Shown here piece by piece: positions 43,876 through 64,000 of a stretch of DNA of 64,000 bases. The stretch is taken from contig JBBIRR010000021.1 in assembly GCA_037441705.1 (NCBI GenBank), positions 1 through 64,000 of the forward strand. The letters run 5' to 3'. The position numbers were made by a program, and so were the translations under genes. Below the pieces are notes generated by a model. That model was not told the DNA's origin and ran no database searches. It saw only the letters and a list, made by a program, of their open reading frames with translations. Position 1 is the first letter of the stretch. Each line of letters opens with the position of its first letter. Source of the DNA: Ignavibacteriales bacterium (GTDB lineage: Bacteria; Bacteroidota; Ignavibacteria; UBA10030; UBA6906).

Positions 43876-45477
43876 ATGAAAAGGGGAATCGTACTCTATC
43901 CGCTCTTGAAACCACGCATCGGGCTGACGCTTGCTTTCCTCGCCTTTCTCTCTTCGTGCGACCCGGTGGGGCCTCCGCCGCCTTCTGTGGTTTCCTGTTC
44001 CGCATCTCTCACCCAATCTGAGGTTGAAACGCTGATTGCTCATGCAGTGGAGCAGGCGCAGCGTCTCAATGAAAAAGTAACGATTGCCATCTCTGACCGA
44101 GAAGGAAACATCCTCGGCGTATTCCGGATGACGGGTGCACGCTTTGTCTCAGCGCCTCTCACCGTCAACGGCGTACCCGTTCAGGTCACAACGGTTGATA
44201 CGTGCATCCGCAAAGCGCGCACGGCCGCCTTTCTCAGCAGCAACGGGCATGCGTTTTCAACCACAACTGCATGTTTCATCACTCGTTCCCATTTCCCGCC
44301 CGGCGTTGCCAACGCGCCGGCAGGGCCGCTGTTCGGCGTCGGGTTGTCGAGCCTGCCGGGCAGCGACATCATGCCCAACGGAAATGCCCTCAGCGATCTT
44401 CCGGGCGGAATCCCTATTTACAAAGGAGGGTGCCTTGCGGGCGGCATCGGCGTCATCGGCGCGGCGTCGCAGTTCGATCCGACCCTGTGTACGGGACAGA
44501 GCCTCGATGAGGTGATTGCCCTCGGCGCCACCGCTGATTTTTCCGTCCCGCCGGACAAGCGTGGCGACAGGATTTTCATTGATGGGATTCGATTTCTTTA
44601 CACAACCTCCGAAGCACCATCTGCGAATTACACGCTGACATTTGCGCAAGCTCTCACGCTCGGTTCGGTGGATAACGACTATCCGATTCGTGCAACACCG
44701 GCAGCGCGGTTCCCCGATGAAGGCGAAGTCCTGTTGGGTGGCGGATTCGATTTCCCGATTCGTGCAGGGACGTTTCTCTCTCTGGCGGATGTCCAGACGA
44801 TCATTCGACAAGCTGCGACTCAGGCGTCGCGTACCCGCGCAGCAATTCGGCGTCCCGTCGGTGCAGCCGCTCAGGTCTTCATCGCTGTGGTTGATGTTGA
44901 TGGTTCAGTCTTGGGGGTCTGGCGCACACCCGATGCGACGATCTTCAGCTTTGACGTGAGTGTGCAAAAGGCTCGCACCGCGCTCGTCTTCAGCAATCCA
45001 AACAATCCAATTTCGCAAAACAATCGAGAATTCAGTCAACGCCTCCGGGCGATCCTCGGTCTTCCGCCTGCACAGCCTCTTGCCGTATCAACGCGGGCGG
45101 TTGGTTTTCTTGCGCAGGATTTTTTCCCACCCGGGATTGACCGTGACTCCTTAGGTGGGCGCATCGAGCCGGGGCCGTTGTTCGAGGGGACAAACTTTGC
45201 ATATCAATTCCGTTTGCTTGCAGAGGGTCTGCCGCTATTCGCAGGCAACCGCAGCAATGGTATCACAATTTTCCCCGGTGGCATTCCACTGTACAAGAAC
45301 GGCCAACTCGTCGGCGCCATCGGCATCAGCGGCGACGGTGTCGATCAGGATGATTTGATTGCTGCGGCGGGGGCGAAGGGTTTCGAACCGCCCGCTGAGA
45401 TTCGATGCGATCAGGTATCCTACCACGGCGTTCGTCTCCCATACGTCAAGTTTCCTCGACAGCCGGAGATTCGCTAA
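43876..45477 (+). CDS. Lipoprotein with two tandem GlcG/HbpS-like heme-binding domains
   Basis: Lipobox LSS-C; two copies of IA(I/V).D..G..LG..R...KARTA and PGGIP(I/L)YK.G.L.G.IG(V/I).G. Confidence 0.85.
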   Translation: MKRGIVLYPLLKPRIGLTLAFLAFLSSCDPVGPPPPSVVSCSASLTQSEVETLIAHAVEQAQRLNEKVTIAISDREGNILGVFRMTGARFVSAPLTVNGVPVQVTTVDTCIRKARTAAFLSSNGHAFSTTTACFITRSHFPPGVANAPAGPLFGVGLSSLPGSDIMPNGNALSDLPGGIPIYKGGCLAGGIGVIGAASQFDPTLCTGQSLDEVIALGATADFSVPPDKRGDRIFIDGIRFLYTTSEAPSANYTLTFAQALTLGSVDNDYPIRATPAARFPDEGEVLLGGGFDFPIRAGTFLSLADVQTIIRQAATQASRTRAAIRRPVGAAAQVFIAVVDVDGSVLGVWRTPDATIFSFDVSVQKARTALVFSNPNNPISQNNREFSQRLRAILGLPPAQPLAVSTRAVGFLAQDFFPPGIDRDSLGGRIEPGPLFEGTNFAYQFRLLAEGLPLFAGNRSNGITIFPGGIPLYKNGQLVGAIGISGDGVDQDDLIAAAGAKGFEPPAEIRCDQVSYHGVRLPYVKFPRQPEIR

Positions 45478-47159
45478 TGCATCCCATGAAGTCGACCTTC
45501 CTGAGCACGCTGCTGCTGATTGGTCTTGTATCATCGTTGTTGGCGCAGACGGGTCGACCGGCGGACACGACGCGCGCCGTGGCGGATTCCCTTGCGCCGC
45601 AGCCGCCGGATTTTGAGGTGATTGAAGACCGTTGGAGAATCAAAGCTCCCCCCATCGAACAAACCGTCGAGGGCAGCATTCTCGATCCTTACAACCAGAA
45701 TGTTCTGAAGGGAGACTATCCCATCATCGGGCAGAACACGTTTCTCATCCTGACAGCATCTGCAGAAAATATCTTTGAGATGGTCAAGAACCCGACTCCC
45801 ATCGGGGTGAGCACGCGCCAGCCGCTCAGCGATCCCTTCTTCGGCAACAGCGACCGGCTGTTCAACAACACGTTTGCAAAACTCTCGGTGGAGTTATACG
45901 GCGGACAAACGGCATTTCGTCCGCGTGATTGGGAACTGAAGGCAACGGCCGTGTTCAATCTGAACTATACCAAACTGAAGGAGTTTAACGCCGTCAACAT
46001 CAACGTCCGCAAGGGCGATACCAGAACCGAGAATCACATCGGCTTTCAGGAGTTGTTTGCCGAGAAGCATCTATTTGACGTGAGCGACCGATATGATTTC
46101 GTTTCGTTGAAAGTCGGCATCCAAAAGTTTTCCAGTGACTTTCGAGGATTTGTGTTCAGTGATTTCAATCTCGGCGCGCGGTTGTTTGGCAGCTTCAACT
46201 CCAACCGCATTCAATGGAATCTTATTTACCTCCCGATGCTGGAGAAGGAAACCAACAGCGAGCTGAACACCGTCTTCAAGAAACGAGAGCAGGACGTGGC
46301 GATTGCCAACGTGTACATTCAGGATTGGTTGACGCTCGGCTATACGACACAATTCAGCTTCCACTTCAATCACGACAAGCCGAGCGTGCACTATGATCAG
46401 AACGGCTTCCTCGTCCGCCCGGCAATTGCAGGCAACACGAAGCCGCACGACATCAAAGCATTCTATGCGGGATGGGCAGGCGACGGGCACTTCGATTGGC
46501 TCAACATCACGCACGCGTTCTACTACGTTTTCGGTACGGATGATTTCAATTCCTTTGCCGGAAGAAAGATTACGATCAACGCACAAATGGCGGCGCTTGA
46601 GCTTTCGGTGGATGACGACTGGCAGCGGTTCAGGATTTCCGGACTCTACGCTTCCGGCGATGATGACATTGCAGACGATGTCGGCAAAGGCTTCGATGCG
46701 ATTCTTGACGCGCCGTTCTTCGCCGGCGGCCCGTCCGGGTACTGGCAGTCTCAGCGCATCGGCATTCAAGGGGTGGGACTCGTGCAGAAGTTCAGCTTCC
46801 TTCCAACGCTGCGCAGCAGTAAGTTGGAGGGTCAGGCGAATTTCGTCAATCCTGGACTCATTCTTCTCAATGCCGGGTACGACGCCGACATTACGCCCAC
46901 GCTCAAGGCAACAGTGAATGTCAACTATCTTCGTTTTGTGAATACAGCTGTTCTGGTGGATTTTCTGAATCAGAACTCCATCCACAAACAGATCGGAATC
47001 GAAGCAGGCCTCGGCATTCTCTACCGGCCGTTCCTGAACAACAACGCAATCGTCACGCTAACGTTCTCAGCATTCTCTCCGCTCGCCGGGTTCAAAGATA
47101 TTTATGAAAGAGGGGAGATGTTGTATGCAGGGACCGTCGGGATGACGTTTACGTATTGA
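45477..47159 (+). CDS. Predicted outer-membrane beta-barrel protein
   Basis: TAATG overlap with the previous stop; signal peptide; aromatic-rich alternating strands; C-terminal beta-signal GTVGMTFTY. Confidence 0.75.
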   Translation: MHPMKSTFLSTLLLIGLVSSLLAQTGRPADTTRAVADSLAPQPPDFEVIEDRWRIKAPPIEQTVEGSILDPYNQNVLKGDYPIIGQNTFLILTASAENIFEMVKNPTPIGVSTRQPLSDPFFGNSDRLFNNTFAKLSVELYGGQTAFRPRDWELKATAVFNLNYTKLKEFNAVNINVRKGDTRTENHIGFQELFAEKHLFDVSDRYDFVSLKVGIQKFSSDFRGFVFSDFNLGARLFGSFNSNRIQWNLIYLPMLEKETNSELNTVFKKREQDVAIANVYIQDWLTLGYTTQFSFHFNHDKPSVHYDQNGFLVRPAIAGNTKPHDIKAFYAGWAGDGHFDWLNITHAFYYVFGTDDFNSFAGRKITINAQMAALELSVDDDWQRFRISGLYASGDDDIADDVGKGFDAILDAPFFAGGPSGYWQSQRIGIQGVGLVQKFSFLPTLRSSKLEGQANFVNPGLILLNAGYDADITPTLKATVNVNYLRFVNTAVLVDFLNQNSIHKQIGIEAGLGILYRPFLNNNAIVTLTFSAFSPLAGFKDIYERGEMLYAGTVGMTFTY

Positions 47160-47176
47160 GCATGAAGTGGAGTTCA

Positions 47177-47292
47177 GTCGGGACTGCGCTCATCCTTCGA
47201 CTCTGTCCCGCCTGAAAAGCGGCGGGACTCCGCTCAGGATGACGCTTCGACTCCGTCCCGACAAAGAGCGTCGGGTCAACTCTCAGGATGAC
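47177..47292. repeat. Tandem REP-like units with nested hairpins
   Basis: Two units CTTCGACTC-[GTCCCG..hairpin..CGGG]-CTCAGGATGAC at 47195-47243 and 47245-47292; partial third copy GTCGGGACTGCGCTCA at 47177. Confidence 0.7.
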
Positions 47293-47369
47293 CGTGTTAG
47301 CGCGTATGAAATCCCGGAGAATTTGGAATGGAGATCAAAACAACGCGATCACGTTTTCACATATCGAGC

Positions 47370-50300
47370 ATGAGATACCTCCTCTGTATTCTCCTGTACT
47401 CCTCGCTGCATGCACAGCAGGTTGATCTGCTTCGCCAAACGCAGGCCGAGGCTGACCGCAAGAGCAAAGGATGCCTCACGTGTCACGGCGGCATCGAGCC
47501 GATGCACAAAAATCCCGCGGTGAAACTCGGCTGCACCGATTGCCACGGCGGCAATGCCGACGCGTTAGCCAAAGAGGCTGCACATGTGAAGCCCCGCTTT
47601 CCTGGCCGATGGAAATCCGCGGCGAATCCCCAACGGTCGTACACGCTGCTTAATGACGAGTACCCCGAGTTCGTGCAGTTCGTGAACCCGGGAGACTTGC
47701 GTGCTGCGGAGAAGGCCTGCGGGCCATGCCACAACCAGCCGGCAGACCCGATTGTGCGCAACGTGAAGAAGAGCATGATGACCACCTCTGCGCTGCTGTG
47801 GGGCGGCGCGGCATACAACAACGGCATCCTGCCGGTGAAGCAGTATATCCTCGGTGAAAGCTATAGTTGGGACGGCAAGCCGCAGAAAATCAACACCGTT
47901 CCCATCCCAACGAAAGAAGAGATGGACAAAAAGGGTGCGCTGCCGTTTCTGGTGCCTTTGCCGCGATGGGAGATAACGCAACCGCCCGACAACTTCCGCA
48001 GCTTCGAACGAGGCGGAAAAGTTTCACGCATCAATCCGTCGGAGATCGGCATCCCGAATCCGTTCGAGGAGCCGGGCCGGCCTGACAACAAGCTGAGCGA
48101 TCGCGGTCCGGGAACGCAACTGCGCATCAGCTCGCCCGTGCTGAACATTCACAAGACTCGCTTGAACGACCCGCATCTCTCGTTCCTCGGCACGAATGAT
48201 CATCCGGGGGATTATCGCTCGAGCGGATGCACGGCCTGTCATGTCGTATACGCGAATGATCGCTCGCCGTTCAATGCCGGACCGTACGCGCGCTACGGCA
48301 ATCGCGGCTACTCCTTCAGCGCCGATACGACGATTCCGAAGAACGAACCGGGGCATCCCATCAAACATCAATTCACACGCTCGATCCCTTCCAGCCAGTG
48401 CATGAGCTGCCACATGCATCAGCCGAATGCCTTCGTCAATACCTATCTCGGTTATCAAATGTGGGATTACGAGACCGACGGCGATCTGATGTATCCCAAG
48501 CAGCAGAAGTATCCGTCAAACGCCGAAGCGTTCGAGATGCTGATGAAGAATCCGGAGGAAGCCGTGCTGCGCGGACACTGGAGTGACGATGAGTTTCTCG
48601 CGGACGTCAGCAAACTCAATCCTCAACTCTCTCACACTCAGTTCTCGGATTATCATGGGCACGGGTGGGTCTTCCGCGCCGTTTTCAAGCGTAACCGTAA
48701 GGGCAATCTTTTGGACAAAGACGGCAATATCATTCCCGAAAACTCTCCCTTCAAGTTCGACGGCGTCGTTCCCGTCGAAGGCCTTACGCCAAAGGTGCTC
48801 TCGCCCGAAAGTCAACGCTCGCAGAAGGCCGTGCATCTCAAGGACATTCATCTCGAAAAGGGGATGCAGTGTGTTGATTGCCACTTCAAGCAGGACGCGC
48901 ACGGTAACGGCACGTTGGTAGGGGAGTTTCACAATGCCGTTGAGATTCAGTGCGTGGATTGTCACGGCACCGTCAATGCCAAGGCAACGCTGCGTACATC
49001 GGGTGTTGCTGCGCCGACGGGCGGGACAGATTTGACGACCATGTTCACCCCGTTTGGCGAGCGGCGGTTCAGGAGATCGGCAGGAAAAATCCTCCAGCGC
49101 TCCTCGCTTGTTGATACGCTGCAGTGGGAAATTCTTCAGACCGTTGACACGCATACCCGCGGATCGCGAGGCTACAACGCGAGAGCAGAGGCCGCACACC
49201 TGATGCTGAAAGATGGAACGATCGGGACGCCGGGCGTCAGCGACGATATGCTCGCCCATTCGTACAAGAAAATGGAATGCCAGAGCTGCCACACGTCGTG
49301 GATCACGAATTGCTTCGGCTGTCATCTGCCCCAACAGGCAAACTGGAAGAAGCAGATGAATCATTACGAGGGAGAGGTTTCGCGAAACTGGACGACGTAC
49401 AATCCGCAGGTCCTGCGCGATGACGGCTACATGCTCGGCATGACGGGCACAACGAAGGGAAACAAGATCACGACGGTTCGCTCATCGAGTGCGCTCGTGC
49501 TCAGTTCTCGAAACGCCAACCGGGAACAGATCTATATTCAGCAGGCTCCCATTTCAACGCCGGGGTTCAGCAGTCAGGCATTCAACCCGCATTTTGCGCA
49601 TACCGTTCGCTCGAAAGAAACACGATGGTGCACGGATTGCCACGTCTCCGCAAAGAATGACAACAACGCGTGGATGGCCCAACTGCTTCTGCAAGGAACA
49701 AATTTTGTCAACTTCATGGGAACGTATGTCTATGTAGCGGCGGGTGATGGAGGGGTTGCCGCCGTGCAGGTGACGGAGACCGACGAACCGCAAGCAGTCA
49801 TTGGCAGCTATCTCCACAGCATTGCGTATCCCGATTACTACAAACAACATCTGAATAACAGAAGGCAGTTGCGAACATCGTTCTCGCACGGCGGGACAGT
49901 ATTGAGCGTTCAGCTGCGCGGCGAGTATCTCTACGCTGCTTGCGGCGAGGACGGTTTCCGGGTGTACGACGTTGCGAACATTGACAACAAGGGATATTCC
50001 GAACGCATGGTCACGGCGCCGGTGTCGCCGCTCGGGCAGGATACACATGTCAAGACGCGCTACGCCACGGCGGTTGCCCTTCCCACCAACATGCCCATTG
50101 ATACGCGGCGAAGGGTTCGTCCGGAGAACCAGGAGCAAACGGTTCTGTACGAAGGGAAGTCGTACAACCTTCATCCTCTCTACAGCTACGCGTATATCAC
50201 CGATACGTTTGAGGGATTGATTTTAGTAGATGTCATGAATCTGGTTGACGGCGATCCGCGGAACAACTTTCTCGAGCGAGCAGTAACGTTCAATCCGAAC

Positions 50301-51056
50301 GGGATGCTCAACGGTGCGGTGAACCTTGTGATAGCGGGCAACTACGTGTACATCTGCTGCGACCGCGGCATCGTAGTCGTAAATGTGAGCGACCCGAAGA
50401 AGCCGCGCATCGTGGCCGACGTCGGTGCGCCGTTCATCAGGAGTCCGAAAGCCATTGCTGTTCAATTTCGCTATGCGTTTGTTGTGGATGATGAAGGGGT
50501 AAAAGTCATCGACGTCACGTTCCCGGAGATGCCAAAATTCGTCAAGAAAAGTTTTGTGGCTCTGCAAGGCGGTCGGGATATTTACGTTGCGAGAACATAC
50601 GCGTATGTTGCAGCAGGAACACAGGGCCTTGTCATCATTGATGTCGAGAATCCCGAAGCGATGAAGCTCGAGAAAGTTTTTACTGCGGACGGACAGATCA
50701 ACGATGCGCAAGGAGTGAAGGTGGCCTCGACGAACGCGAGCCTTTTCGCTTATGTTGCCGATGGCAAGAACGGCTTGCGTGTCATCCAACTCACGTCTCC
50801 GAAAACGGTGCCCGGCTATCTCGGTTTCAGTCCGAAGCCTGTTCCGCAACTCATTGCCACGAAGCCACTTAGCGGGCGCTCGCTTGCTATCTCCAAAGGT
50901 ATGGATCGTGATCGAGCAGTGGATGAGAGCGGTAATCAAGTCAGCGTTTTCGGGAGATTAGGTTCGCGACCCTTCACGCTCGCGGAGATGCAGAGGCTGT
51001 ACCTGAAAGAGGCAAAACTGTGGACGGTGACGGAGGACGGAAAAGTTGTCCGTTGA
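47370..51056 (+). CDS. Exported decaheme c-type cytochrome fused to an LVIVD-repeat beta-propeller
   Basis: Signal peptide; 10 CxxCH motifs (CLTCH, CTDCH, CGPCH, CTACH, CMSCH, CVDCH x2, CQSCH, CFGCH, CTDCH); C-terminal YAYVA...GL.IIDV..P repeats. Confidence 0.92.
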   Translation: MRYLLCILLYSSLHAQQVDLLRQTQAEADRKSKGCLTCHGGIEPMHKNPAVKLGCTDCHGGNADALAKEAAHVKPRFPGRWKSAANPQRSYTLLNDEYPEFVQFVNPGDLRAAEKACGPCHNQPADPIVRNVKKSMMTTSALLWGGAAYNNGILPVKQYILGESYSWDGKPQKINTVPIPTKEEMDKKGALPFLVPLPRWEITQPPDNFRSFERGGKVSRINPSEIGIPNPFEEPGRPDNKLSDRGPGTQLRISSPVLNIHKTRLNDPHLSFLGTNDHPGDYRSSGCTACHVVYANDRSPFNAGPYARYGNRGYSFSADTTIPKNEPGHPIKHQFTRSIPSSQCMSCHMHQPNAFVNTYLGYQMWDYETDGDLMYPKQQKYPSNAEAFEMLMKNPEEAVLRGHWSDDEFLADVSKLNPQLSHTQFSDYHGHGWVFRAVFKRNRKGNLLDKDGNIIPENSPFKFDGVVPVEGLTPKVLSPESQRSQKAVHLKDIHLEKGMQCVDCHFKQDAHGNGTLVGEFHNAVEIQCVDCHGTVNAKATLRTSGVAAPTGGTDLTTMFTPFGERRFRRSAGKILQRSSLVDTLQWEILQTVDTHTRGSRGYNARAEAAHLMLKDGTIGTPGVSDDMLAHSYKKMECQSCHTSWITNCFGCHLPQQANWKKQMNHYEGEVSRNWTTYNPQVLRDDGYMLGMTGTTKGNKITTVRSSSALVLSSRNANREQIYIQQAPISTPGFSSQAFNPHFAHTVRSKETRWCTDCHVSAKNDNNAWMAQLLLQGTNFVNFMGTYVYVAAGDGGVAAVQVTETDEPQAVIGSYLHSIAYPDYYKQHLNNRRQLRTSFSHGGTVLSVQLRGEYLYAACGEDGFRVYDVANIDNKGYSERMVTAPVSPLGQDTHVKTRYATAVALPTNMPIDTRRRVRPENQEQTVLYEGKSYNLHPLYSYAYITDTFEGLILVDVMNLVDGDPRNNFLERAVTFNPNGMLNGAVNLVIAGNYVYICCDRGIVVVNVSDPKKPRIVADVGAPFIRSPKAIAVQFRYAFVVDDEGVKVIDVTFPEMPKFVKKSFVALQGGRDIYVARTYAYVAAGTQGLVIIDVENPEAMKLEKVFTADGQINDAQGVKVASTNASLFAYVADGKNGLRVIQLTSPKTVPGYLGFSPKPVPQLIATKPLSGRSLAISKGMDRDRAVDESGNQVSVFGRLGSRPFTLAEMQRLYLKEAKLWTVTEDGKVVR

Positions 51057-51126
51057 GGGCGGAGAAGTAGAATAAGGGCTTCGGCTTCTAAGTAATTTCT
51101 GTGCATTCACAAGCGCGAGAAAAACT

Positions 51127-52152
51127 GTGAGCGATTGCGCCGATTCAAAACTCGTTCTTCGTCATTTCGTGTTCGTGTTTGCTGTTCTGCTTGCAGGCCT
51201 TGCGAGGGACGCCGCGTATGCACAAACGCGCTATCAAACGATCGGCCCGAGCGGCTGTGGCGTGGGACAGAACAACTGCCACGCTTCGGAGAACAGGAAC
51301 ATGGTGGACAAACACAAGAACTCGGTTGATGACATCGCCGACAACGAAGATGCTCGAAAGTACGCCGATCTTTCGGGCATCGGCGCGGGGAACTATCTCA
51401 AGGGAACCTCTCGCTGCATGGAGTGTCACGGCACCATCATTTCCGGGAAGGAAGGAAAGGAAGTTGAAGAAGGCGTGAGCTGCGAAAGCTGTCACGGTCC
51501 CGGCAGCGCATACAAAGATGCTCACGCTGAAGGTCCCAAAGGCGCGCCCGGCACAATTCGTCCCGGATACACGAAATCTCTTCCGCTTGGGTTGCTCGAT
51601 CTCAAGAGCCCTGATGTGCTCGCACAAGCCTGCGTTCGCTGTCATGTCATCACCGATCAGAAAATCCTCGCCGCGGGTCACCCCGATGGGGTGAAGTTCA
51701 ACTACAAGTCGGGAATGAAATCCGTGGCAAAGCACTGGAAGTATCGCGACGCGGGAAGCATTCCGGAGCAAGCCGTGTTCAAAGCAGCAGCTGCGCGCAA
51801 GGGGCCGACCGGCGTCACCGCGAAAATGCCGAAACCCGCTGTCCAGCCGCAGGCCGCCGTGGAGAAGCCCGCGCCCGCACAAGCACGCGCGCCTAAAGCA
51901 GAAGCGCTTACCCCCGAACCTAAGCCTGCGACCACCGTTGCCGTCGAGGACAGTCCACCGCGTGTGCCTGTCCGCAGACCGCCTCCTCCGCCGAAGCCCG
52001 CACCGGTGGACGCAACTGCTCCGCCGCCGGCTGCAGTCACACCCATCGAGCTGCCTCCGTTTCCGGAAGTTACCGACAGTACACGCATTGATCGGCTGCT
52101 GCTTCTGCTCAAGCAGCGGTTGGAGTTGTTGTATAAGAAGACAGGTAATTAG
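51127..52152 (+). CDS. Cytochrome c554-like multiheme protein (3 CxxCH + 1 CX6CH) with Pro/Ala-rich tail
   Basis: Signal peptide; GPSGCGVGQNNCH, CMECH, EGVSCESCHGPGS, CVRCH; AAGHP motif; GTG start. Confidence 0.85.
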   Translation: MSDCADSKLVLRHFVFVFAVLLAGLARDAAYAQTRYQTIGPSGCGVGQNNCHASENRNMVDKHKNSVDDIADNEDARKYADLSGIGAGNYLKGTSRCMECHGTIISGKEGKEVEEGVSCESCHGPGSAYKDAHAEGPKGAPGTIRPGYTKSLPLGLLDLKSPDVLAQACVRCHVITDQKILAAGHPDGVKFNYKSGMKSVAKHWKYRDAGSIPEQAVFKAAAARKGPTGVTAKMPKPAVQPQAAVEKPAPAQARAPKAEALTPEPKPATTVAVEDSPPRVPVRRPPPPPKPAPVDATAPPPAAVTPIELPPFPEVTDSTRIDRLLLLLKQRLELLYKKTGN

Positions 52153-52158
52153 CGCCCC

Positions 52159-53781: not shown

Positions 53782-54617
53782 TGCACAAGCTCGCGCACAC
53801 ACTTCGGCTGCAGCGGTTCGTCCGCTCGCCCGACTGGGCGGCGTGGTTCCTTCTGGCGACGTCAGTGTTTCTGCTCATGTATGCCGTCAATGTCATTCTG
53901 TTCGATGTCAATCCGGGAAATTGGTGGGGACTGACGTACGGATGGATTGCCGCGCTGCTCATGTTCGGTGCGGGACTCTACGGCGTGCGGCGACGCGTCC
54001 TGAACCGCGACTTCGGCAATTCGAAAGTGTGGGTAGAGTTTCACGTTTACGGCGGCACGCTCGCCGCGCTGCTGGTGCTGCTGCACACCGGCTTCAGACT
54101 GCCCAACGGCCTGTTCAACTGGCTCCTGTGGCTTCTGGCTGTGTGGGTAACAGTAAGCGGGTTGCTTGGTGTCATTCTGCAGCGATGGATTCCGAAGCTG
54201 TTGACATCGGGCCTTTCCGTCGAAGCAGTCTATGAACGGATTCCTGATTTGGTTCTTGAGCTGCGTGAACGAGCGGAGAAACTCGTGCGAACCTGTGCGG
54301 CTCCGGTGCGGGACTTCTATCAGGGTACCGTTGCCGCAGCGCTCGTCCAGCCCGAACCGCGGCTCATCTACTATCTGGATGTAACTGGAGGAGTCCAGTC
54401 CCGCATTCGGAAGTTCGAATTCCTTCGGCGCGTTCTGCCCGATGAGGAAAAGAAACGACTCGATGAGCTTCAGCTCATCTACAAAACAAAACTCGAATTG
54501 GACGCTCACTATTCATTGCAGCGAGCGCTCCGTTGGTGGCTCTACTCACATGTGCCGCTGTCAATGGTGCTGCTTCTGATGATTCTCCTGCATATATGGG
54601 CTGTGTGGTATTACTGA
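53781..54617 (+). CDS. Integral membrane protein with four TM histidines (putative di-heme b cytochrome, ferric-reductase-like)
   Basis: TGATG overlap; WVEFHVYGG...LVLLHTGF and WWLYSHVPLS...ILLHIWAV, His pairs 13 residues apart in two TM helices. Confidence 0.75.
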   Translation: MHKLAHTLRLQRFVRSPDWAAWFLLATSVFLLMYAVNVILFDVNPGNWWGLTYGWIAALLMFGAGLYGVRRRVLNRDFGNSKVWVEFHVYGGTLAALLVLLHTGFRLPNGLFNWLLWLLAVWVTVSGLLGVILQRWIPKLLTSGLSVEAVYERIPDLVLELRERAEKLVRTCAAPVRDFYQGTVAAALVQPEPRLIYYLDVTGGVQSRIRKFEFLRRVLPDEEKKRLDELQLIYKTKLELDAHYSLQRALRWWLYSHVPLSMVLLLMILLHIWAVWYY

Positions 54618-54650
54618 ACTGGATTGCTTGATGGTTTAGGATGATGTCGT

Positions 54651-56246: not shown

Positions 56247-57142
56247 CGGCACGTTTGTTCTGCAAGACAGGTCAACTTGCCGGAGCCAGCTTCGAGTTCA
56301 CCAAAGAGGCGACGATCGGGAAGCAACCCGGAAACACGATACAACTTTATCCGGCACTCATCTCGGGCAGGCATGCACGCATTTTCTTCGATGAGAAGGA
56401 GAATGCCTACTTCATAGAAGATTTGAACAGCCGCAACGGAACCAAGGTGGATGGGATGCGGGTGAGTGGGAAAGAGCGGCTCGGAAAGCTGCATGTTATC
56501 ACGTTTGCCAACACATTTGATTTTTTCTTTCAAGTTCTCGACGCGCCGGTTCGTGCCGATGCAGAGCCGACGATCTCGAAGAAGCCGGTGCAACAAGACG
56601 AACAGAAAGCCAAGCCGGCAGCGCCACGTGCAGAGCCGCAGGCAGCTCCTGCGACCCGTTCACAAACCATTTATGACGATGGGGGCATCTTTGCTCCGGG
56701 CCTCCTCGACGAGCAGGCGGCACCCTCTCCGTCATCGGACGATAAGCAGCGGACGAAAGTGGGGGTAGACATAACACCGGTACCGTCGTTCGTCGAGCCT
56801 TCAAAGCCGCCGAAGTCAGTACAAGATGGTGAAGCTGCAGGCGCATTTGTTCTTGTGTTCGAGTCGCTGCAAGGCAAACCACAGGCGTTCGATCTCAAGG
56901 AGGGAATAACTGTTGTTGGAAGAGAGGCGGGATGTACGATAGTAGTTGAAGATCCTTCCGTGTCCCGCAGACACGCCGAGCTTGTGCTCAAAGGAGGCAG
57001 ACTGACGATCAAAGATCTCGGCAGCAAGAATCATACGTACATTGACGAGCAGCGCATCGCGAAAGAGGTTGAAGTGACCGAGGGACGGGCAATAACGTTC
57101 GGCCTGGTGCGAGCGCGTTTGGTGCGGAAGCCAATACGGTAG
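56243..57142 (+). CDS. Double FHA-domain protein with low-complexity linker
   Basis: ATGA overlap; IGK...ISGRHARI...DLNSRNGT and VGR...VSRRHAEL...DLGSKNHT. Confidence 0.9.
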   Translation: MTARLFCKTGQLAGASFEFTKEATIGKQPGNTIQLYPALISGRHARIFFDEKENAYFIEDLNSRNGTKVDGMRVSGKERLGKLHVITFANTFDFFFQVLDAPVRADAEPTISKKPVQQDEQKAKPAAPRAEPQAAPATRSQTIYDDGGIFAPGLLDEQAAPSPSSDDKQRTKVGVDITPVPSFVEPSKPPKSVQDGEAAGAFVLVFESLQGKPQAFDLKEGITVVGREAGCTIVVEDPSVSRRHAELVLKGGRLTIKDLGSKNHTYIDEQRIAKEVEVTEGRAITFGLVRARLVRKPIR

Positions 57143-57252
57143 TGCAGTTCGCGCTGGCTGTCATGGCGTACAGTGCTTATCCTGCGCCGTGACAGGCCGG
57201 CCGGGCTGAGCGCATAGCGCACGCGCATTCTAATATAAAAGCATGAGTTCCA

Positions 57253-59538
57253 ATGTCCATTAGTGAATTTGCATACGAGCCTGACGGCACGCTTGTGCTG
57301 AGGAAGGCGGTGCGACTGCCGGACGTGCTCGACCTGTTAGTTGTCGGTGCTGGACCTGCAGGAACCGCCGCGGCATTTCGCGCGGTGGAGTTGGGATTGA
57401 GCGTGCTTGTGATTGACTACGATGACATCCTCAAGCGCATCCGAGACTATCCCAAGGACAAACTCATCCTTCCGGACTTCGGTGGCGGCGACCAGATGCG
57501 CTTTCCTAAAGGAGGCAAGCTCATCTCATCCCTTCATTTCTCTCCCATAGATAAGGATGAGTTGGTTGCTTCCTGGAAGCAGTTGTATGTCGAGAACAAT
57601 GTGCCGGCCAAAATTGGTGTCGAGCTTCTCAGCATCACGCGCAGCAACGGCATGTGGGAGGTGAAAGTGTGGAACTACAACGTCAGGGACGAGTACTTGC
57701 TTCGCGCACAACACATTGCCATCGGCATTGGCCGAGGAGTGCCCCGGCGCTTCGACATTCCCGGCAACACAGATGGCATCGCGTACCGTCTTGCCGATCC
57801 GCAAGCGTACGTCAACGGACCTGCGCTCGTTATCGGCGGTGGAACATCGGCAGCCGAGGCAGTCATTGCCATCTCGAACGCGAAAGCAAAAGCCGCCGAT
57901 CGCTCGGCTGTATACTGGTCCTATCGCGGCGAGAAGCTGCCGAAAGTCTCCAAGGCCCTTGCCGACGTGTTCTTCGAAGCCTACATCGGCAACGGCAATA
58001 TCCGTTACTTCCCGAACAGCGAGCCGGTTGCCGTCATTAGCGGCGACGATAGTCGGGATTATCTTTCGGTTCGAGTTGACCGAAAGACGATTGCCGGTCG
58101 CCCGAATGAGACGCAGCATCTTGAGTTTCCCAAAGAATCCTGCATCGCGTGCATCGGCGAAGACATCCCTGAAGCATTTCTCAACTCGCTCGGCATCACG
58201 ATGGTGACGGGTGGCCCGGCGCGCAAAAAGCGCATGTGTGTGACGCGGTTGCTCGAAACACAGCAACCCAACGTCTACCTCATCGGCGACATTTTGAGTC
58301 AGGCGTACTTAGAAACCGATGACTTCGCCGCCGATCCGGCCACGTTCCGCGAAGTGAAACATCGCGGTAACATCAAAGCAGGATTGATTGACGGCGTTCT
58401 CGTCGCCGAAGTCGTAGCCCAGCGTCTTGCCGGAAAAACGGAGATTGATGTGAAGGTAGAGTTTGAAGAGGCTGCAGGCGTCAGCGAACCGCCGAAGCCT
58501 GCAAGTCCACTTGCAACGATCTTCTCCAGTCTTCCACCTCCTGCGGAAAAGGAAGCAGCACCGCGCCGCGCCGTGCTTGTGCGTGTACTTGCCGGCGGCG
58601 TAGAAGAGGACGAATATCCCGTTGCCCTTCACGGCAGCGTTACCATCGGCAGGAAATTCTGCGACATCGTCTTTCCGGACGATACGCTCCTTTCCGAAAA
58701 GCATGCTGCGGTTACCTATGGGCCCGACGGATTCACGCTGCGCGACGAAGGGAGCCAGAACGGCGTGTTTCTTCGACTTGTGGAAGGGAAACCCAGAGAG
58801 GTGACAAACGGCGATCTCGTGCGTGCCGGTCGTCAATTTCTTCTCTTTCGTGTTGAGAACGGCGAGAGCGCCATGCTTCATTACGACCGCACAGGAAAGC
58901 GAGTCAACTCCTATCCTCTTTTCTCGGGAAAGACAGTTGTAGTTGGTCGGGAAGCTCCAGATATTACACTCGACACATCGGACATGACGCTTTCGCGCAG
59001 ACATCTTGCCGTATCCGTAAAAGAAGGAGCGATCTTGGTCAAAGATCTCAAGAGCGTGAACGGTACGTATCTCAAAGTGCGCAACGTCGTTTCCCTTGAG
59101 CCGGGCGACGTGTTCCGGGTGGGCAGTCAGGCATTCAAGCTCCAGTGGGTGGAGGAGGGACCGGCGAGTTTACGCGTAAGCACGAAACCTCCTTCGGCTC
59201 CGAAGCCTGTTTCGCCAAAGCCAGCGCCGGAAGTCCCGAAGGCGGCAGCGATGACGGTGACGTTCAAGAACGTCGGCAAAACTGTTGCATTCGATGCGGG
59301 ACAAACGATCTGCGCTATTGCGGAGAAGAACGGTATCAAGATCGTTGCCGAGTGCCACGCGGGGATTTGCGGAAGCGATCCGATTCGGGTAATTTCCGGT
59401 AGAGAGTGTCTCGGCCCCATCAGCGATGAGGAGAAGGGGACACTCGAAGACATCTGTGGGCATGTTGCCGGAGAATACCGGCTGGCCTGCATGGCAAAAC
59501 CAAGCGCTCCTGTTGAAGTGGAGATTCTCAGCTCGTGA
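57253..59538 (+). CDS. FAD/NAD(P)H oxidoreductase (thioredoxin-reductase/YpdA-like) fused to two FHA domains and a C-terminal [2Fe-2S] ferredoxin
   Basis: VVGAGPAG, VIGGGTSAAE, WSYRG, ETQQPNVYLIGD; FHA IGR..SEKH..SQNG and VGR..SRRH..SVNGT; ECHAGICGSD...RLAC. Confidence 0.88.
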   Translation: MSISEFAYEPDGTLVLRKAVRLPDVLDLLVVGAGPAGTAAAFRAVELGLSVLVIDYDDILKRIRDYPKDKLILPDFGGGDQMRFPKGGKLISSLHFSPIDKDELVASWKQLYVENNVPAKIGVELLSITRSNGMWEVKVWNYNVRDEYLLRAQHIAIGIGRGVPRRFDIPGNTDGIAYRLADPQAYVNGPALVIGGGTSAAEAVIAISNAKAKAADRSAVYWSYRGEKLPKVSKALADVFFEAYIGNGNIRYFPNSEPVAVISGDDSRDYLSVRVDRKTIAGRPNETQHLEFPKESCIACIGEDIPEAFLNSLGITMVTGGPARKKRMCVTRLLETQQPNVYLIGDILSQAYLETDDFAADPATFREVKHRGNIKAGLIDGVLVAEVVAQRLAGKTEIDVKVEFEEAAGVSEPPKPASPLATIFSSLPPPAEKEAAPRRAVLVRVLAGGVEEDEYPVALHGSVTIGRKFCDIVFPDDTLLSEKHAAVTYGPDGFTLRDEGSQNGVFLRLVEGKPREVTNGDLVRAGRQFLLFRVENGESAMLHYDRTGKRVNSYPLFSGKTVVVGREAPDITLDTSDMTLSRRHLAVSVKEGAILVKDLKSVNGTYLKVRNVVSLEPGDVFRVGSQAFKLQWVEEGPASLRVSTKPPSAPKPVSPKPAPEVPKAAAMTVTFKNVGKTVAFDAGQTICAIAEKNGIKIVAECHAGICGSDPIRVISGRECLGPISDEEKGTLEDICGHVAGEYRLACMAKPSAPVEVEILSS

Positions 59539-60317
59539 GAACATTAACCTACGCCGGCAAAACCGATATTGGAAGAGTGCGTGATGAGAATCAGGATGCG
59601 ATGGGGAAATTTCCCAGCGACTCGCTCGATCTCGACACACCCAAAGGCCAGCTCTTGATTGTTGCGGATGGGATGGGCGGACACGCGGGCGGTCGAGAAG
59701 CGAGCCGTCTTGCTGTCGAAACGATTGCGCGGGTCTATTTCGCGTCCGATATGCCGGTCGCCGAAAGCCTGAAACGCTCATTCAAGGAAGCGAACAAGGC
59801 GATCTACGACTACAGCGTCAACAATCCGCAGTATTACGGGATGGGCACAACGTGCATCGCTCTTGTGCTGCAAAACGCCGCAGCATACGCCGCGCACATA
59901 GGCGACAGCCGCCTGTACCATATCAATGGCCACAGCATCAAGCAATTGACGCGCGATCACTCGAAAGTGGCAGAGATGGTTCGTCGCGGCATGCTCACTC
60001 CCGAAGAGGCACGGTGGCACCCCGAGCGCTCTATGCTCTACCGTGCCATGGGAGTAGTTCTCAATGTGGAGTTCGATTTTCTCAACGGCATCGTGTTGGG
60101 GTCCGACGATTACCTCGTGCAATGCACCGACGGCCTCACCGCATACGTGGAGCCTGAAGAACTCCGTGAGGTTGTTGTGAGCAACTCGCCGCAAGAAGCC
60201 TGCGACGTGCTGGTGGACCTTGCCAACAGCCGCGGCGGACACGACAACATCACCGTGCAGATCGCCCACGTGCGGGGCGGAAACGGATTCCTGAAAACGT
60301 TCTTGCGCTCTCGATAG
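59535..60317 (+). CDS. PP2C-family Ser/Thr protein phosphatase (Stp1/PrpC-like)
   Basis: GTGA overlap; TDIGRVRDENQD, VADGMGGHAGG, HIGDSRLY, CTDGL, GGHDNITV. Confidence 0.95.
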   Translation: MRTLTYAGKTDIGRVRDENQDAMGKFPSDSLDLDTPKGQLLIVADGMGGHAGGREASRLAVETIARVYFASDMPVAESLKRSFKEANKAIYDYSVNNPQYYGMGTTCIALVLQNAAAYAAHIGDSRLYHINGHSIKQLTRDHSKVAEMVRRGMLTPEEARWHPERSMLYRAMGVVLNVEFDFLNGIVLGSDDYLVQCTDGLTAYVEPEELREVVVSNSPQEACDVLVDLANSRGGHDNITVQIAHVRGGNGFLKTFLRSR

Positions 60318-60320
60318 GTC

Positions 60321-62123
60321 ATGCAATCAATCATCGGCAAAGTTGTTGACACATACGAGATCACCGGCATTCTCGGCAAGGGAGGCATGGGCGTTGTGTA
60401 CAAAGCGAAGGACATGACGCTCGATCGGGACGTGGCGCTGAAAATGATGGACGCCAATCTTGCGCGCGATGAGGAGTTCCTCAAGCGATTCAAATCCGAA
60501 GCGAAAGCGCTCGCGAAGCTGCAGAATCGCAACATCGTCAGCGTCTTTGCACTGCGGGAGACGGAGTTGGGCCTGGCGCTTGTGATGGAGTTTGTTGACG
60601 GCACGACGCTGGCGGATCAGCTTCGCCTGCAGGGCCCGATTCCGCTGGCGCGCACAATGCATATCTTCAAGCAAATCCTCGGCGCACTGGGCGACGCGCA
60701 TCGCAATAACGTCATCCATCGAGACATCAAGCCGAGCAACGTGATGTTGACGAAAGACGATGTCGTGAAGGTGACGGACTTCGGGCTTGCCAAGATTCAG
60801 CAGGTCTCCGGCGCTACCGTGACGATGGGAACGGGCGGCACTTTGTATTACATGTCACCTGAGCAGATCCGCGGGCTTGCCAATGTTGATCAACGCGGCG
60901 ATATCTACTCGATCGGCATGACGCTCTACGAGACGGTGACCGGACGTGTGCCCTTCGGAAATGATCTGACCGATTTCGACATCCGGCAGATGATTGTGGA
61001 AGGAAAAATTCCGCCGCCCGAGCGATTCAATGCCGCGCTTCCGAAGGAGCTTGTGCAGGTCATCGTGAAATCCATCCACAAAGATCCCAACAAGCGTTTC
61101 CAGTCATGCGAAGAAATGTCCGCTGCCCTCGGGGCGATTGAACTGAAGCCGGAAGATGGCGAGGTCAAACGGGCGACCGTCGAGCCCCCGCCGCGCCTGC
61201 CCAAGTACAAACCGCGCCCGTCGCCGAAGCGGCCACTTTTTGTGACGCTCGGGGCAGGAGTCGTTCTGATTGCCGGTTTGTTCATTGCTCGTTCGTACCT
61301 CTTTCCGCCAACGGGTATGCTGAGCATCGATTCCGACCCGCCCGGCTCAACGATTTCGGTTAACGGAAACGCTGCAGGCGTAACACCGTTGGAAAACATC
61401 TCGCTCGCCGCAGGCAAGATTGTGGTTGAAGTTGACAAAGAAGGGTATTATCGGAAGGACACGACTCTTTCCCTCGACGCGGGGCAGAACGTTTCCCTGC
61501 TTATCACTCTTACAAAACTTCCGACGCAAACCGCCGCACAGCGGGAGGAGACAGCGGCGGGCAGCGAGCAGAAACAGGCCGTTCAGCAGCCGATCTCTGA
61601 GCGAAGAACCGAGAATGTAACCACCGTGCCGGCGGAGCGAAAACCAGCTCCGGCTACCCGCGGCGAAACGGCTGCTCCTGCGCGCGCCGCGCTTGTGCTG
61701 CGTGCGGTGCCGTCAGGCTCCGTCGTTGTGGACGGCGGACCAAGAACAAATCTCGGTTCGTCGGCCTCAAGCGTCGAGGTTGCTCCGGGTCAACGGACGA
61801 TCATCTTTGAACATCCGACCTACGGCAGCAAACGGATCAACGTCACATTGCAGCCGGGCGAACAAAGACAGCTCACGTGTTATTTCGAAACGTATCTCAG
61901 CGTAGCCACGACGGGCGATGCAGCGTGGGGACTGCTTGTGATTGATGGGAAAGCGACGGATGTGCAAACCCCCATTGATGGCTATCCCCTGGGGCCGGGC
62001 CGACATCGGATTTCCGTGAGCAAGATGGGCTATGAAACGGTGGAAGGCGAGAAGGTCGTGGTCGTCGAGCCGACGTTCGAGCGACGCGTCGAGCGCCTGT
62101 CCTTTACACTCAAACGAAAATAA
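60321..62123 (+). CDS. Hanks-type Ser/Thr kinase with TM helix and periplasmic PEGA domains
   Basis: LGKGGMGVVY, VALK, HRDIKPSN, DFGLAK, GTLYYMSPEQ; TM LFVTLGAGVVLIAGLFIA; PEGA SDPPGSTISVNG..GVTP. Confidence 0.95.
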   Translation: MQSIIGKVVDTYEITGILGKGGMGVVYKAKDMTLDRDVALKMMDANLARDEEFLKRFKSEAKALAKLQNRNIVSVFALRETELGLALVMEFVDGTTLADQLRLQGPIPLARTMHIFKQILGALGDAHRNNVIHRDIKPSNVMLTKDDVVKVTDFGLAKIQQVSGATVTMGTGGTLYYMSPEQIRGLANVDQRGDIYSIGMTLYETVTGRVPFGNDLTDFDIRQMIVEGKIPPPERFNAALPKELVQVIVKSIHKDPNKRFQSCEEMSAALGAIELKPEDGEVKRATVEPPPRLPKYKPRPSPKRPLFVTLGAGVVLIAGLFIARSYLFPPTGMLSIDSDPPGSTISVNGNAAGVTPLENISLAAGKIVVEVDKEGYYRKDTTLSLDAGQNVSLLITLTKLPTQTAAQREETAAGSEQKQAVQQPISERRTENVTTVPAERKPAPATRGETAAPARAALVLRAVPSGSVVVDGGPRTNLGSSASSVEVAPGQRTIIFEHPTYGSKRINVTLQPGEQRQLTCYFETYLSVATTGDAAWGLLVIDGKATDVQTPIDGYPLGPGRHRISVSKMGYETVEGEKVVVVEPTFERRVERLSFTLKRK

Positions 62124-62167
62124 CCGTCATCAATATCAATCATCACGATGAGAGGAAAGGGGACCCT

Positions 62168-63193
62168 ATGATTCGCGAAACGTTTTTGAAGGCAGGAATC
62201 AGCGTGATTCTGGTAATGCTTGCTGGAGGTAGCAGCGTTGCGCTTGCACAGTCGGACGCACACACGAAGTGGGAAGAAGCACAGAAGTTCTACAACTCCG
62301 CCAACTTCGACAAGGCAATTGAGCTGCTTCAGCCTCTTGCCGACGATAAGTCCCTTGACAAGAGCGCCCGGAAGAACGTCCTGCTGGCATTGGGACGCGC
62401 CCACATTGCCAAGGGCAACAAGAAAGGCGCACTGACGGCAATGCAGAAGTTGTTAGAGGTCGAGCCTCCGGTGATTGAACTCGACCCGGACGCCGAGTGC
62501 CCGCCGCTGATGAAGGTGTACTACGAAGCTCGGAAGGCGAAGTCCGGAACGACACAGGTGGAACGTCCCGACCCCGGCATTCGGACGATCGCTATACTCG
62601 ACTTCAAGAATCGCTCGGTCGATGACAAAGAAAAGTATGACCCGTTGGAGAAAGGTTTTGCCGAGTTGATGATTGATCAGCTCAACGGCGCCGTGGATTT
62701 GAAAGTGATCGAGCGAGAGCGTATCCAATGGATTCTCGAAGAGATTGGATTGGAGAATGATCCTTCCAAGTTCGATCAATCGTCCGCCGTCCGGGTGGGT
62801 AAGCAGCTTGGTGTGCATACGATCCTGCTGGGAAGTTTCATCAAAGTGAAAGATAAGATGAAGCTTCTTGCTCGATTGGTAAAGGTCGAGACGAGCGAGA
62901 TTCTCGCAACGGAGCAGGCCGAAGGAGACGCCGATGAGTTTTTCGAGGTTGCCGAGAACCTCAGCCTGAAGGTGGCAAAGAAGATCAACGCGGCATTGAC
63001 CAAAGCCGATGTGGAGAAAAACACCGAGACAAAGTCGCTTGATGCAATGATGTCGTATTCGGAAGGGTTGGTGTTGTTAGAGAAGGGGAATTACAAGGAC
63101 GCGTACGACAAGTTCATGCGTGCGCTGGAAATCGATCCGAATTACAACAAGGCACGCACGAAAGCCGAAAGCCTGAGGCCGCTGCTCGGATAG
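62168..63193 (+). CDS. Exported TPR + CsgG/HfaB (TolB-N-like) domain protein
   Basis: Signal peptide; N- and C-terminal TPRs; TIAILDFKN...LKVIERERIQWILEE...SAVRVGKQLGV...GSF...ARLVKVETSEIL. Confidence 0.85.
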   Translation: MIRETFLKAGISVILVMLAGGSSVALAQSDAHTKWEEAQKFYNSANFDKAIELLQPLADDKSLDKSARKNVLLALGRAHIAKGNKKGALTAMQKLLEVEPPVIELDPDAECPPLMKVYYEARKAKSGTTQVERPDPGIRTIAILDFKNRSVDDKEKYDPLEKGFAELMIDQLNGAVDLKVIERERIQWILEEIGLENDPSKFDQSSAVRVGKQLGVHTILLGSFIKVKDKMKLLARLVKVETSEILATEQAEGDADEFFEVAENLSLKVAKKINAALTKADVEKNTETKSLDAMMSYSEGLVLLEKGNYKDAYDKFMRALEIDPNYNKARTKAESLRPLLG

Positions 63194-63248
63194 CAGCACA
63201 ACGCGCGCTGTGCGCGTTCATTGTTTATCAATCAACGCTGGAGAATCT

Positions 63249-64000
63249 ATGCGATTACTCTGTTGCGTCCTCGTCGTTCTGAGCGCAAGCTTGCTCGTTT
63301 CGTGTGTTACCGTCAAGACGCCGGGAGGCGATGAGGATTACAGCGGGGATATTCGAGAGCTGCTGCGCCAGCTTGCAGCCAATCCCGAGGACCCGATCGC
63401 TTTGCGCGAAATCGGCATTCGGTACTTTCTCTCCAAGCAATTCGATCTTGCGAAGCTTCACCTCTTCCGTTCGTACATGCGTGCGGATGACGATCCGAAG
63501 ACGATCTTCTACTACGGGCTGACGCTGGAATATATGGGAGATGTGCAAGGCGCGCTTGCGATCTACATTCACTACTCGGATGTGTCGTCGTTCTCGCCCT
63601 ATCGCAAGCTGATCGAAGGCCGTTACCGCGCGCTAACGCGAGAGATGATCAAGCAGCAATTCCAATCCCTCCTTGTGAACGAACAACAGCTCGGTGCCGA
63701 ACGCATGTCGCCGAAGGCCGTTGCCGTCTTTCCGCTCACATATCAAGGCACGGATCCCAAGTACGAAGCCCTGGGCAAGGGCATCAGCGAGATGGTCATC
63801 ATTGATTTGGGACAGATCAAGAGCCTGACGCTGATCGAACGTATCCGTATTGAAGCGCTGCTGGAGGAACTGAAATTCGGGGAGTCGAAGTTTGTGGACC
63901 GTGGCACCGCACCGCGCCTCGGCAAACTGCTCAGCGCCGGAAGAGTCGTCTCGGGATCGTTCAACGTCAGCAACGAGAAGCTTCGCATGGACGTCGCCGC
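63249..64000 (+). CDS. Lipoprotein with TPRs and CsgG/HfaB-like domain (3' truncated by window edge; absent from the ORF track)
   Basis: Manual translation MRLLCCVLVVLSASLLVS-C...AVAVFPL...LGKGISEMVIIDL...LTLIERIRIEALLEE...APRLGKLLSAGRVVSGSF, open to base 64000. Confidence 0.85.
   Translation, partial: MRLLCCVLVVLSASLLVSCVTVKTPGGDEDYSGDIRELLRQLAANPEDPIALREIGIRYFLSKQFDLAKLHLFRSYMRADDDPKTIFYYGLTLEYMGDVQGALAIYIHYSDVSSFSPYRKLIEGRYRALTREMIKQQFQSLLVNEQQLGAERMSPKAVAVFPLTYQGTDPKYEALGKGISEMVIIDLGQIKSLTLIERIRIEALLEELKFGESKFVDRGTAPRLGKLLSAGRVVSGSFNVSNEKLRMDVA

Follow-up and report, generated by a model that had tools for sequence, protein, structure and literature searches.

Several described systems bear on the gene cluster reported here. 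The ptdABCDEFG operon has been named, its function being unknown (bioRxiv 10.1101/2023.11.21.568154); the relevant parts of the preprint describe a FAD/NAD(P) oxidoreductase, a tetrahaem cytochrome, an Fe–S protein with cyclic nucleotide monophosphate (cNMP) domains, a ferric-reductase-like membrane protein and a decahaem cytochrome. For Verrucomicrobia, a putative porin–multihaem complex has been proposed to mediate extracellular electron transfer, and the section on the complex gives no inner chain or signalling (PMC5615132). In Geobacter, extHIJKLMNOPQS groups a lipoprotein, a porin, large multihaem cytochromes, an Fe–S protein and a cytochrome b, much as the present cluster does; its input is of the Rieske/cytochrome b kind, and flavoprotein, FHA and cNMP domains are not listed in the part describing the cluster (PMC5877670). 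The Tenderiales uet cluster is, as far as its description goes, a different system. We analysed a stretch of 64,000 nucleotides (the window) of contig JBBIRR010000021.1 from an Ignavibacteriales bacterium (GCA_037441705.1), in which positions 43876 to 64000 carry a real, conserved and uncharacterised system whose core corresponds, by description, to PtdC–G. On the basis of motifs, conservation, folds, gene fusions and neighbourhood statistics, we consider it on balance probable that the cluster encodes a quinone-independent chain of the ptd family, one that carries electrons outward from NAD(P)H in the cytoplasm and is gated here by Thr phosphorylation.

The cluster comprises 13 open reading frames (ORFs), all on the + strand, which in the reading of the window run from 43876 to beyond 64000. 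Four junctions have overlapping stop and start codons (TAATG at 45475, TGATG at 53779, ATGA at 56243 and GTGA at 59535) and the remaining intergenic gaps measure 3–210 nt. There are 10 + 3 + 10 = 23 CxxCH motifs, against a background of one in 87,596 codons over the six frames of window positions 1–43,800; with a conserved Cx6CH the number of c haems probably rises to 24. An earlier note, made from the sequence alone, had listed the 13 co-oriented genes, the four overlapping junctions and the 23 motifs, all of which are present. Its domain calls are borne out by Pfam, which supports tandem HbpS/GlcG, LVIVD, c554, two cNMP plus Fer4, c7/c3, two FHA, Pyr_redox plus two FHA plus Fer2, PP2C, Pkinase plus PEGA, and TPR plus CsgG; the exceptions are the barrel and the four-His membrane protein, for which Pfam gave no family match. 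A promoter and terminator scan of the region yielded counts at chance level (2 versus 7.5; 28 versus 22.4). The closest named relatives are Ignavibacteria and other Bacteroidota genomes, and the host has a 3.8-Mb genome with 27 ORFs of at least three CxxCH. For comparison, 80 homologous loci were kept as the best of 388; 60 of them have at least 7.5 kb visible downstream, and 48 with 8 kb visible upstream were used for the outer-module counts.

The inner part of the chain begins with a PtdC-like flavoprotein (57253..59538), in which Pfam, PDB relatives and conservation identify a TrxR/FNR/YpdA-like FAD–NAD(P)H oxidoreductase, two FHA domains and a [2Fe-2S]-type domain with Cys-Cys-Asp-Cys spacing. 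Its nearest relatives in a PDB sequence search are TrxR-fold enzymes, YpdA and ferredoxin-NADP+ reductases; the GGGxSA motif and Arg225 are invariant in 51/51 homologues, which suggests that the enzyme uses NADPH. The C-terminal ferredoxin residues C701, C706, D709 and C746 are kept in 47 of 51 homologues, the other four having gaps. Within this domain (window 59353–59490, residues 701–746) Asp709 occupies the third Cys ligand position in all 47 aligned homologues, and C687 and C735 are conserved too; the [2Fe-2S] ligation is possibly unusual. The PtdE-like Fe–S protein (52159..53781; Pfam, conservation) is cytoplasmic and combines two cNMP-binding-type domains with 4x[4Fe-4S], its 16 Cys falling into four groups, plus C522. 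It is followed by a PtdF-like inner-membrane protein (53781..54617) of about five transmembrane (TM) helices, a predicted dihaem b protein with invariant H88/H102 and H257/H271. These four His are retained in 105/105 aligned sequences down to about 25% identity (40/40 in a smaller set), and the AlphaFold2 (AF2) model (pLDDT 90.6), together with positive-inside topology, puts them on two TM helices, paired so that each side of the membrane has one pair.

Two cytochromes would take over in the periplasm. The PtdG-like decahaem (54651..56246; CxxCH count, alignment) is anchored by a TM segment at residues 33–51 and has ten invariant distal His; these non-motif His occur in 61/61 homologues, as a bis-His wire would have. 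The PtdD-like, c554-like periplasmic cytochrome with a Pro-rich tail (51127..52152; Pfam, alignment) has three CxxCH and a Cx6CH. The earlier note had left its haem number at three or four; it is most likely a tetrahaem, the fourth site C44-x6-C51-H52 being kept in 96% of 72 homologues. Its gene is found in 46 of the 48 loci with the upstream flank visible. Membrane protein and decahaem occur together in 52/60 loci, and both with the adaptor, FAD and FHA parts in 48/60; the eight loci that have no membrane gene downstream are rearranged or cut. Other genomes carry FAD–cNMP–FeS, cNMP–FeS–membrane protein and FHA–multihaem–FeS–FAD fusions. The invariant ligands, the fusions joining each step and the co-occurrence in 48/60 loci make an inner chain NAD(P)H–FAD–FeS–haem b–haem c, as the earlier note had proposed, very likely; co-occurrence in other genomes had been set beforehand as a test, and the genes do co-occur.

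Some relatives of the inner proteins are arranged differently. Single polypeptides at L209:7830-11102 and L214:10454-14005 consist of FHA, eight haems, Fe–S and a flavoprotein domain, with an FHA-cyclase gene downstream in L209. At L064:11790-15238 the cNMP/Fe–S gene is followed by a 340-aa protein lacking Pfam and NCBIfam matches and by a kinase fused to an FGE-sulfatase domain; the same rearrangement is seen in L028, L036, L039, L045, L049 and L073. The host has a second system (L223:6426-15750; G000:C1, about 216–226 kb), whose genes encode cytochromes of 16, 20 and 34 haems, a flavoprotein of the Fe–S plus TrxR-like type, a further member of the four-His membrane protein family (a paralogue) and a 532-aa protein that has no Pfam match; neither FHA nor cNMP domains were found in it. 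At L221:5835-11866 and L220:8999-13734 the membrane-protein family adjoins cytochromes of 51 and 32 haems, and in L221 an Fe–S flavoprotein is present as well.

The correspondence with ptd covers the content of PtdC–G and the order D-E-F-G, and is made from the preprint's descriptions, not by alignment. At the outer end the systems differ: the preprint describes PtdA as a pentahaem having a beta-sandwich at its C-terminal end, and no pentahaem is present in the window cluster, where PtdA and the PtdB-type porin are replaced by a GlcG lipoprotein, an AlgE-like barrel and a decahaem–propeller protein (DecaL). FHA, kinase and PP2C genes are added here; a count of the words 'FHA' and 'kinase' in the text of the preprint gave 0 for each (10.1101/2023.11.21.568154). 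The earlier note knew of no characterised system with this architecture. The system is indeed uncharacterised, but its core already has a name. No paper on this outer module, or on the control of chains like this one by FHA or cNMP, was found in the open literature, most subscription journals lying outside that search.

The signalling genes are interleaved with and follow the redox genes. A tandem-FHA adaptor (56243..57142; Pfam, alignment), with a Pro/Ala-rich linker carrying the conserved T142 and T171, precedes the flavoprotein. Downstream of the latter are a PP2C Ser/Thr phosphatase of the Stp1/IreP family (59535..60317; NF033484 239.6 bits, above the cut-off of 230) and a Hanks-type Ser/Thr kinase (60321..62123; Pfam, TM prediction) with a TM helix at 304–322 and periplasmic PEGA domains. 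Two TPR plus CsgG-like proteins (Pfam) complete the cluster, one exported and a lineage-limited companion of the kinase (62168..63193), the other a lipoprotein with probable ATG at 63249 (63210..64000, continuing on the contig to 64550); their profile occurs in 14/80 loci.

The second FHA domain of each FHA protein has the phosphothreonine (pThr)-binding pocket (Gly-Arg, Ser-x-x-His, Asn). In the flavoprotein, G565, R566, S581, R582 and N603 are present in 51/51 homologues and the His in 42; in the adaptor the counts among 40 are 39 for R227, 39 for S241, 40 for H244 and 38 for N263. These are the residues described for DgcB in the pertinent part of PMC6733907, and the FHA switches GarA/OdhI and DgcB are there likewise characterized by a disordered segment holding a conserved Thr that has hydrophobic residues at +2/+3; their targets are tricarboxylic acid cycle enzymes or a diguanylate cyclase rather than a redox chain of the envelope. 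The motif [KR]T.[IVLM] was seen 38 times in 47 adaptor linkers, compared with 4.9 in 300 shuffles (maximum 12), whereas its Ser version was seen 0 times versus 4.8. For 50 of the 80 loci, chosen for visible flank, we asked whether a kinase lay no more than 3 kb from the cluster edge, taking the expectation from each genome's kinase count and using the higher first-look figure. A kinase was near in 27/50 loci versus 1.8 expected, and in 17/39 versus 1.7 after removal of the 11 closest loci, an enrichment that overstates significance, since related loci are not independent of one another and kinase genes come in clusters along genomes. The nearby kinases belong to at least three lineages and are placed downstream, convergently or divergently. 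Of the two kinases, two PP2Cs and three FHA ORFs of the host, one, one and two, respectively, are in the cluster. The conserved pockets, the Thr-specific linker motifs and the kinase enrichment uphold the earlier note's link to Thr phosphorylation, and the linkage of signalling to redox genes recurs across genomes. We regard pThr–FHA control of the chain as likely.

The kinase, phosphatase and TPR genes might instead be incidental neighbours, with the FHA domains serving as phosphorylation-independent scaffolds. PP2C is present in just 11/60 loci and is lineage-limited, a kinase is missing within 3 kb in 23/50 loci, and the TPR/CsgG profile is infrequent; in the sphingomonad-like loci described below, an FHA-like domain persists in which the three residues found most often at the pocket position do not include Ser. 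The invariant flavoprotein pocket, the linker motifs confined to Thr, and a roughly 15-fold kinase excess drawn from several kinase lineages and in different positions make this explanation improbable.

In the first cNMP-type domain of the Fe–S protein, Gln177 stands where the phosphate-binding Arg is expected, in 118/118 proteins and 78/80 loci, and the second has no conserved Arg. The canonical cassette (Gly-Glu ... Arg) is thus absent from the window-type clade, so that the usual mode of cNMP binding is unlikely and these domains probably do not bind cNMP in that way; of the 'cNMP-type domains' of the earlier note, the fold type stands and the canonical phosphate-binding Arg is missing. Sphingobium herbicidovorans MH shares both core and outer module with the window cluster, and its FAD, cNMP and Fe–S domains are fused. 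In this genome (L091:2262-16371) the outer module is preceded by genes for CHAT, CHASE2-cyclase and ShlB-family proteins and for a 2092-aa protein without a Pfam match. A comparison set of 80 sphingomonad-like metagenome loci, the best of 594, includes 48 of at least 15 kb. Its fusions have Arg in both cassettes (75/75 full-length), a class III phosphodiesterase follows in 48/48 of the long loci, and a kinase is present in 4/48; the phosphodiesterase is found in 0/80 window-type loci. The pocket Ser of the FHA-like domain is missing in most sphingomonad-like copies. Adenylate cyclase was considered as a marker of the cNMP type and rejected as weak (3/48 long loci versus 1/54), leaving the phosphodiesterase as the marker. 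The sphingomonad metallophosphoesterase was rejected as a protein phosphatase, its best matches being SpdA/CpdA/Rv0805 and both its NCBIfam scores falling below the cut-off.

The outer module of the window consists of three genes. The first (43876..45477) encodes a lipoprotein with a lipobox ending at C28, read from the sequence, and tandem GlcG/HbpS-like domains (PF03928, E 6e-32, two stretches); its PDB relatives are EfgA, PduO-type proteins and NahX. The earlier note called it haem-binding. The lipoprotein is confirmed, and haem binding is a family label, H139 alone being conserved (91% of 22 homologues). The second (45477..47159) encodes an outer-membrane beta-barrel of 18 strands by DSSP count on an AF2 model (pLDDT 82), for which 7999 of 8000 scored candidates were homologues. 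Its model matches AlgE best (Foldseek E 1.4e-15; Z 27.8, root mean square deviation (rmsd) 2.8, 363 aligned), followed by Occ porins. The third, DecaL (47370..51056, alternative start 47328), has 10 CxxCH and an LVIVD beta-propeller; of the export claimed for it, a cleavable signal peptide is what is seen. Its 13 His beyond the haem motifs are conserved in at least 94% of 52 homologues, K157, K262 and M137 are invariant, and its 10 haems are spread over about 750 residues. It is 51% identical to the Sphingobium copy, has no PDB sequence relative at E 0.01, and scores 87 bits against ExtM (NCBIfam NF040943), far below the cut-off of 800. DecaL resembles an enzyme no less than a wire. A DecaL orthologue is present in 14/61 relatives, all 14 with the flavoprotein, and three more have the flavoprotein only.

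This module alternates with another. Among the 48 loci with upstream flank, 13 have the window type, 29 a pentahaem type, none both and six neither. The alternative comprises a pentahaem, an unrelated porin and a 7–8-haem tandem c554 protein. The sole PDB match of its pentahaem is cytochrome c552 5ze8, which we take to be the protein cited for PtdA and with which a PtdA identity is consistent. The window barrel is not related by hhalign (probability 0.4) to the alternative porin, which follows the pentahaem in homologous loci, and the profile of that porin found nothing in the host genome. The Verrucomicrobia complex, like the window cluster, has a novel porin beside periplasmic multihaem genes; with a porin of at least 20 strands and an octahaem, as given in its description, it fits the pentahaem module better (PMC5615132). 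The porins described in PMC7399161 are of families different from the window barrel.

Where the electrons end is the least settled part of the proposal. The earlier note had carried the chain to the cell surface. The inner part is supported; its extension to the surface is conjectural, the barrel being AlgE/Occ-like rather than of the MtrB family and DecaL as much enzyme-like as wire-like. The barrel might admit a small solute that is reduced in the periplasm by DecaL or the GlcG lipoprotein, for detoxification or for nutrient or cofactor acquisition; this would be akin to a role put forward for ExtI, together with ExtKL/ExtM, in Geobacter, where ExtI is suggested, in the section concerned, to be a selenite/tellurite channel (PMC5877670). 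The 18-strand AlgE/Occ fold, the spacing of the DecaL haems and its conserved extra residues, the weak ExtM match, and the exchange of two unrelated outer modules on one core, as expected of alternative terminal enzymes, all favour such an endpoint. However, one homologue has a class III tetrahaem (c3) domain fused to the N-terminus of the barrel (L208:9929-12298; barrel part 47% identity), the membrane-protein family and flavoprotein occur elsewhere with wire-like cytochromes of 16 to 51 haems, and no neighbouring gene suggests a substrate. We place electron transfer across the outer membrane slightly below an even chance and reduction of an imported solute in the periplasm at nearly the same level. 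The latter is compatible with phospho-gating and differs from the proposed chain at its outer end only.

A conduit truly of the Mtr/Pcc kind, respiring extracellular acceptors anaerobically, appears unlikely. Like MtrCAB/Pcc, the cluster has a barrel and decahaem cytochromes in one operon, the barrel gene adjoins multihaem genes, and the host is rich in multihaem ORFs; extracellular electron transfer has been proposed, in the parts of these works that treat them, for related clusters (PMC5615132; 10.1101/2023.11.21.568154). The barrel has no Pfam or NCBIfam match, and the MtrB/PioB-family profile PF11854 gave 0 matches in the host genome (100% complete); MtrB is not among the 50 matches listed in either barrel fold search, which does not exclude likeness. 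MtrB has 26 strands. Nor is a quinol-oxidizing subunit recognizable: an NAD(P)H/Fe–S/dihaem input stands in place of quinol oxidation, and direct transfer from NAD(P)H to the periplasm would bypass coupling sites. Finally, the system also exists in Sphingobium, an aerobe.

Several further points weigh against the chain as we propose it. The best fold matches of the barrel are solute channels, and no cytochrome shows a surface-export signal. Fold searches with the membrane protein, whose automatic Atlas name is 'ferric reductase like', gave no clear relative: there is no Foldseek match at E 0.001, superoxide oxidase (Z 8.1, rmsd 3.6, 128 aligned) and hydrogenase cytochrome b and STEAP4 (Z 7.8) appear among generic helical bundles, and a PDB sequence search found nothing. 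On the signalling side, the first FHA domains are partly degenerate, and the loci with no kinase nearby, the scarcity of PP2C and the inflated kinase enrichment count here as well. Five of 20 further Acidobacteriota loci combine two intact cNMP cassettes, intact FHA motifs and the window's outer module, and in 4/48 sphingomonad-like loci PP2C, kinase and FHA lie upstream as well; cNMP and phospho inputs are therefore not exclusive, and a clean either/or of cNMP and FHA is ruled out by the five loci with both. In a midpoint-rooted tree of a subsample, the proteins with Gln group in a single clade (support 0.948) that lies within the Arg proteins, so that the swap is a single contrast and not a statistical series. 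The simplest reading is a dual-input ancestor followed by two opposite specializations, and the window clade appears to have replaced cyclic-nucleotide control by protein-phosphorylation control.

The preferred mechanism can be outlined as follows. Cytoplasmic NAD(P)H, probably NADPH, would reduce FAD, and electrons would pass through the [2Fe-2S] and four [4Fe-4S] clusters to two b haems across the inner membrane, from which the anchored decahaem and then the tetrahaem would relay them to the outer module of DecaL, AlgE-like barrel and GlcG lipoprotein, which would reduce an acceptor at or across the outer membrane. The kinase may sense a periplasmic cue through its PEGA domains, perhaps with the TPR/CsgG proteins, and phosphorylate [KR]-T-x-hydrophobic sites in the adaptor linker and the Fe–S protein; the sites predicted are T142 and T171 of the adaptor and T6 and T108 of the Fe–S protein. 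The FHA domains would then dock or undock the flavoprotein, which is separately encoded here and fused to the Fe–S protein in other lineages; PP2C would reverse the phosphorylation, and an ancestral cNMP input would have been lost or changed in this lineage. Cofactor loading, complex formation, direction, phosphorylation and substrate are what we infer. By standard bioenergetics, outward flow would be downhill and would spend membrane potential, so the chain is probably a gated service and not a respiration, which would explain tight gating.

The chain could also run inwards, a periplasmic donor reducing NAD(P)+, or act mainly as a sensor in which the Fe–S redox state is relayed through FHA contacts. 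TrxR-type ferredoxin-NADP+ reductases, which usually reduce NADP+, are among the PDB relatives of the flavoprotein, and the cluster holds more signalling than a plain reductase would seem to call for. Inward flow would have to climb both the membrane potential and the low NAD(P)H potential, and there is no conserved DNA-binding output, the Crp profile being found at 0/80 loci in either set. We consider this reading unlikely.

Outside the cluster, the window contains a carbohydrate-use locus at 10876–38809 (LacI regulator, TonB-dependent receptor, GH94, two PF10091 glycoamylase-like proteins, GH2, GH3 and an ABC transporter), presumably for beta-glucan use. A 1309-aa sensor with C-terminal HAMP and HATPase domains is encoded at 2753–6682, and a protein-like 167-aa ORF without a Pfam match at E 1e-8 lies at 40288–40791 on the opposite (−) strand.

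To our knowledge, the trans-envelope conduits known so far draw on quinols and are regulated mostly by expression. An NAD(P)H-fed chain switched by Thr phosphorylation or cNMP would, if true, be a new route for reducing things at the surface or in the periplasm, in uncultured Bacteroidota, Acidobacteriota and KSB1 as well as in cultured sphingomonads. The core had a name but no function; what is new is a different outer module and phospho-signalling on a ptd-type core. Predictions at the level of single residues, for the His pairs, the linker Thr sites, the FHA pocket and the Arg/Gln switch, together with the cultured Sphingobium herbicidovorans MH, make the ptd question testable. More tentatively, and with considerable doubt, such quinone-independent NAD(P)H-to-outer-membrane chains may be widespread, with interchangeable outer modules and gates, the cNMP-gated forms of sphingomonads and the kinase/FHA-switched forms having arisen from a dual-input ancestor. 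NOX, ferric reductase and MsrQ-type chains carry electrons from NAD(P)H through FAD and two bis-His b haems across a membrane, and the phagocyte NOX assembles on phosphorylation. The window system has no profile match to these families and differs in its TrxR-fold flavoprotein, Fe–S relay and multihaem acceptors. If the proposal is true, the window system would parallel the phosphorylation-assembled NADPH oxidase in a bacterium, by logic and not by ancestry, and would be wired to the cell surface.

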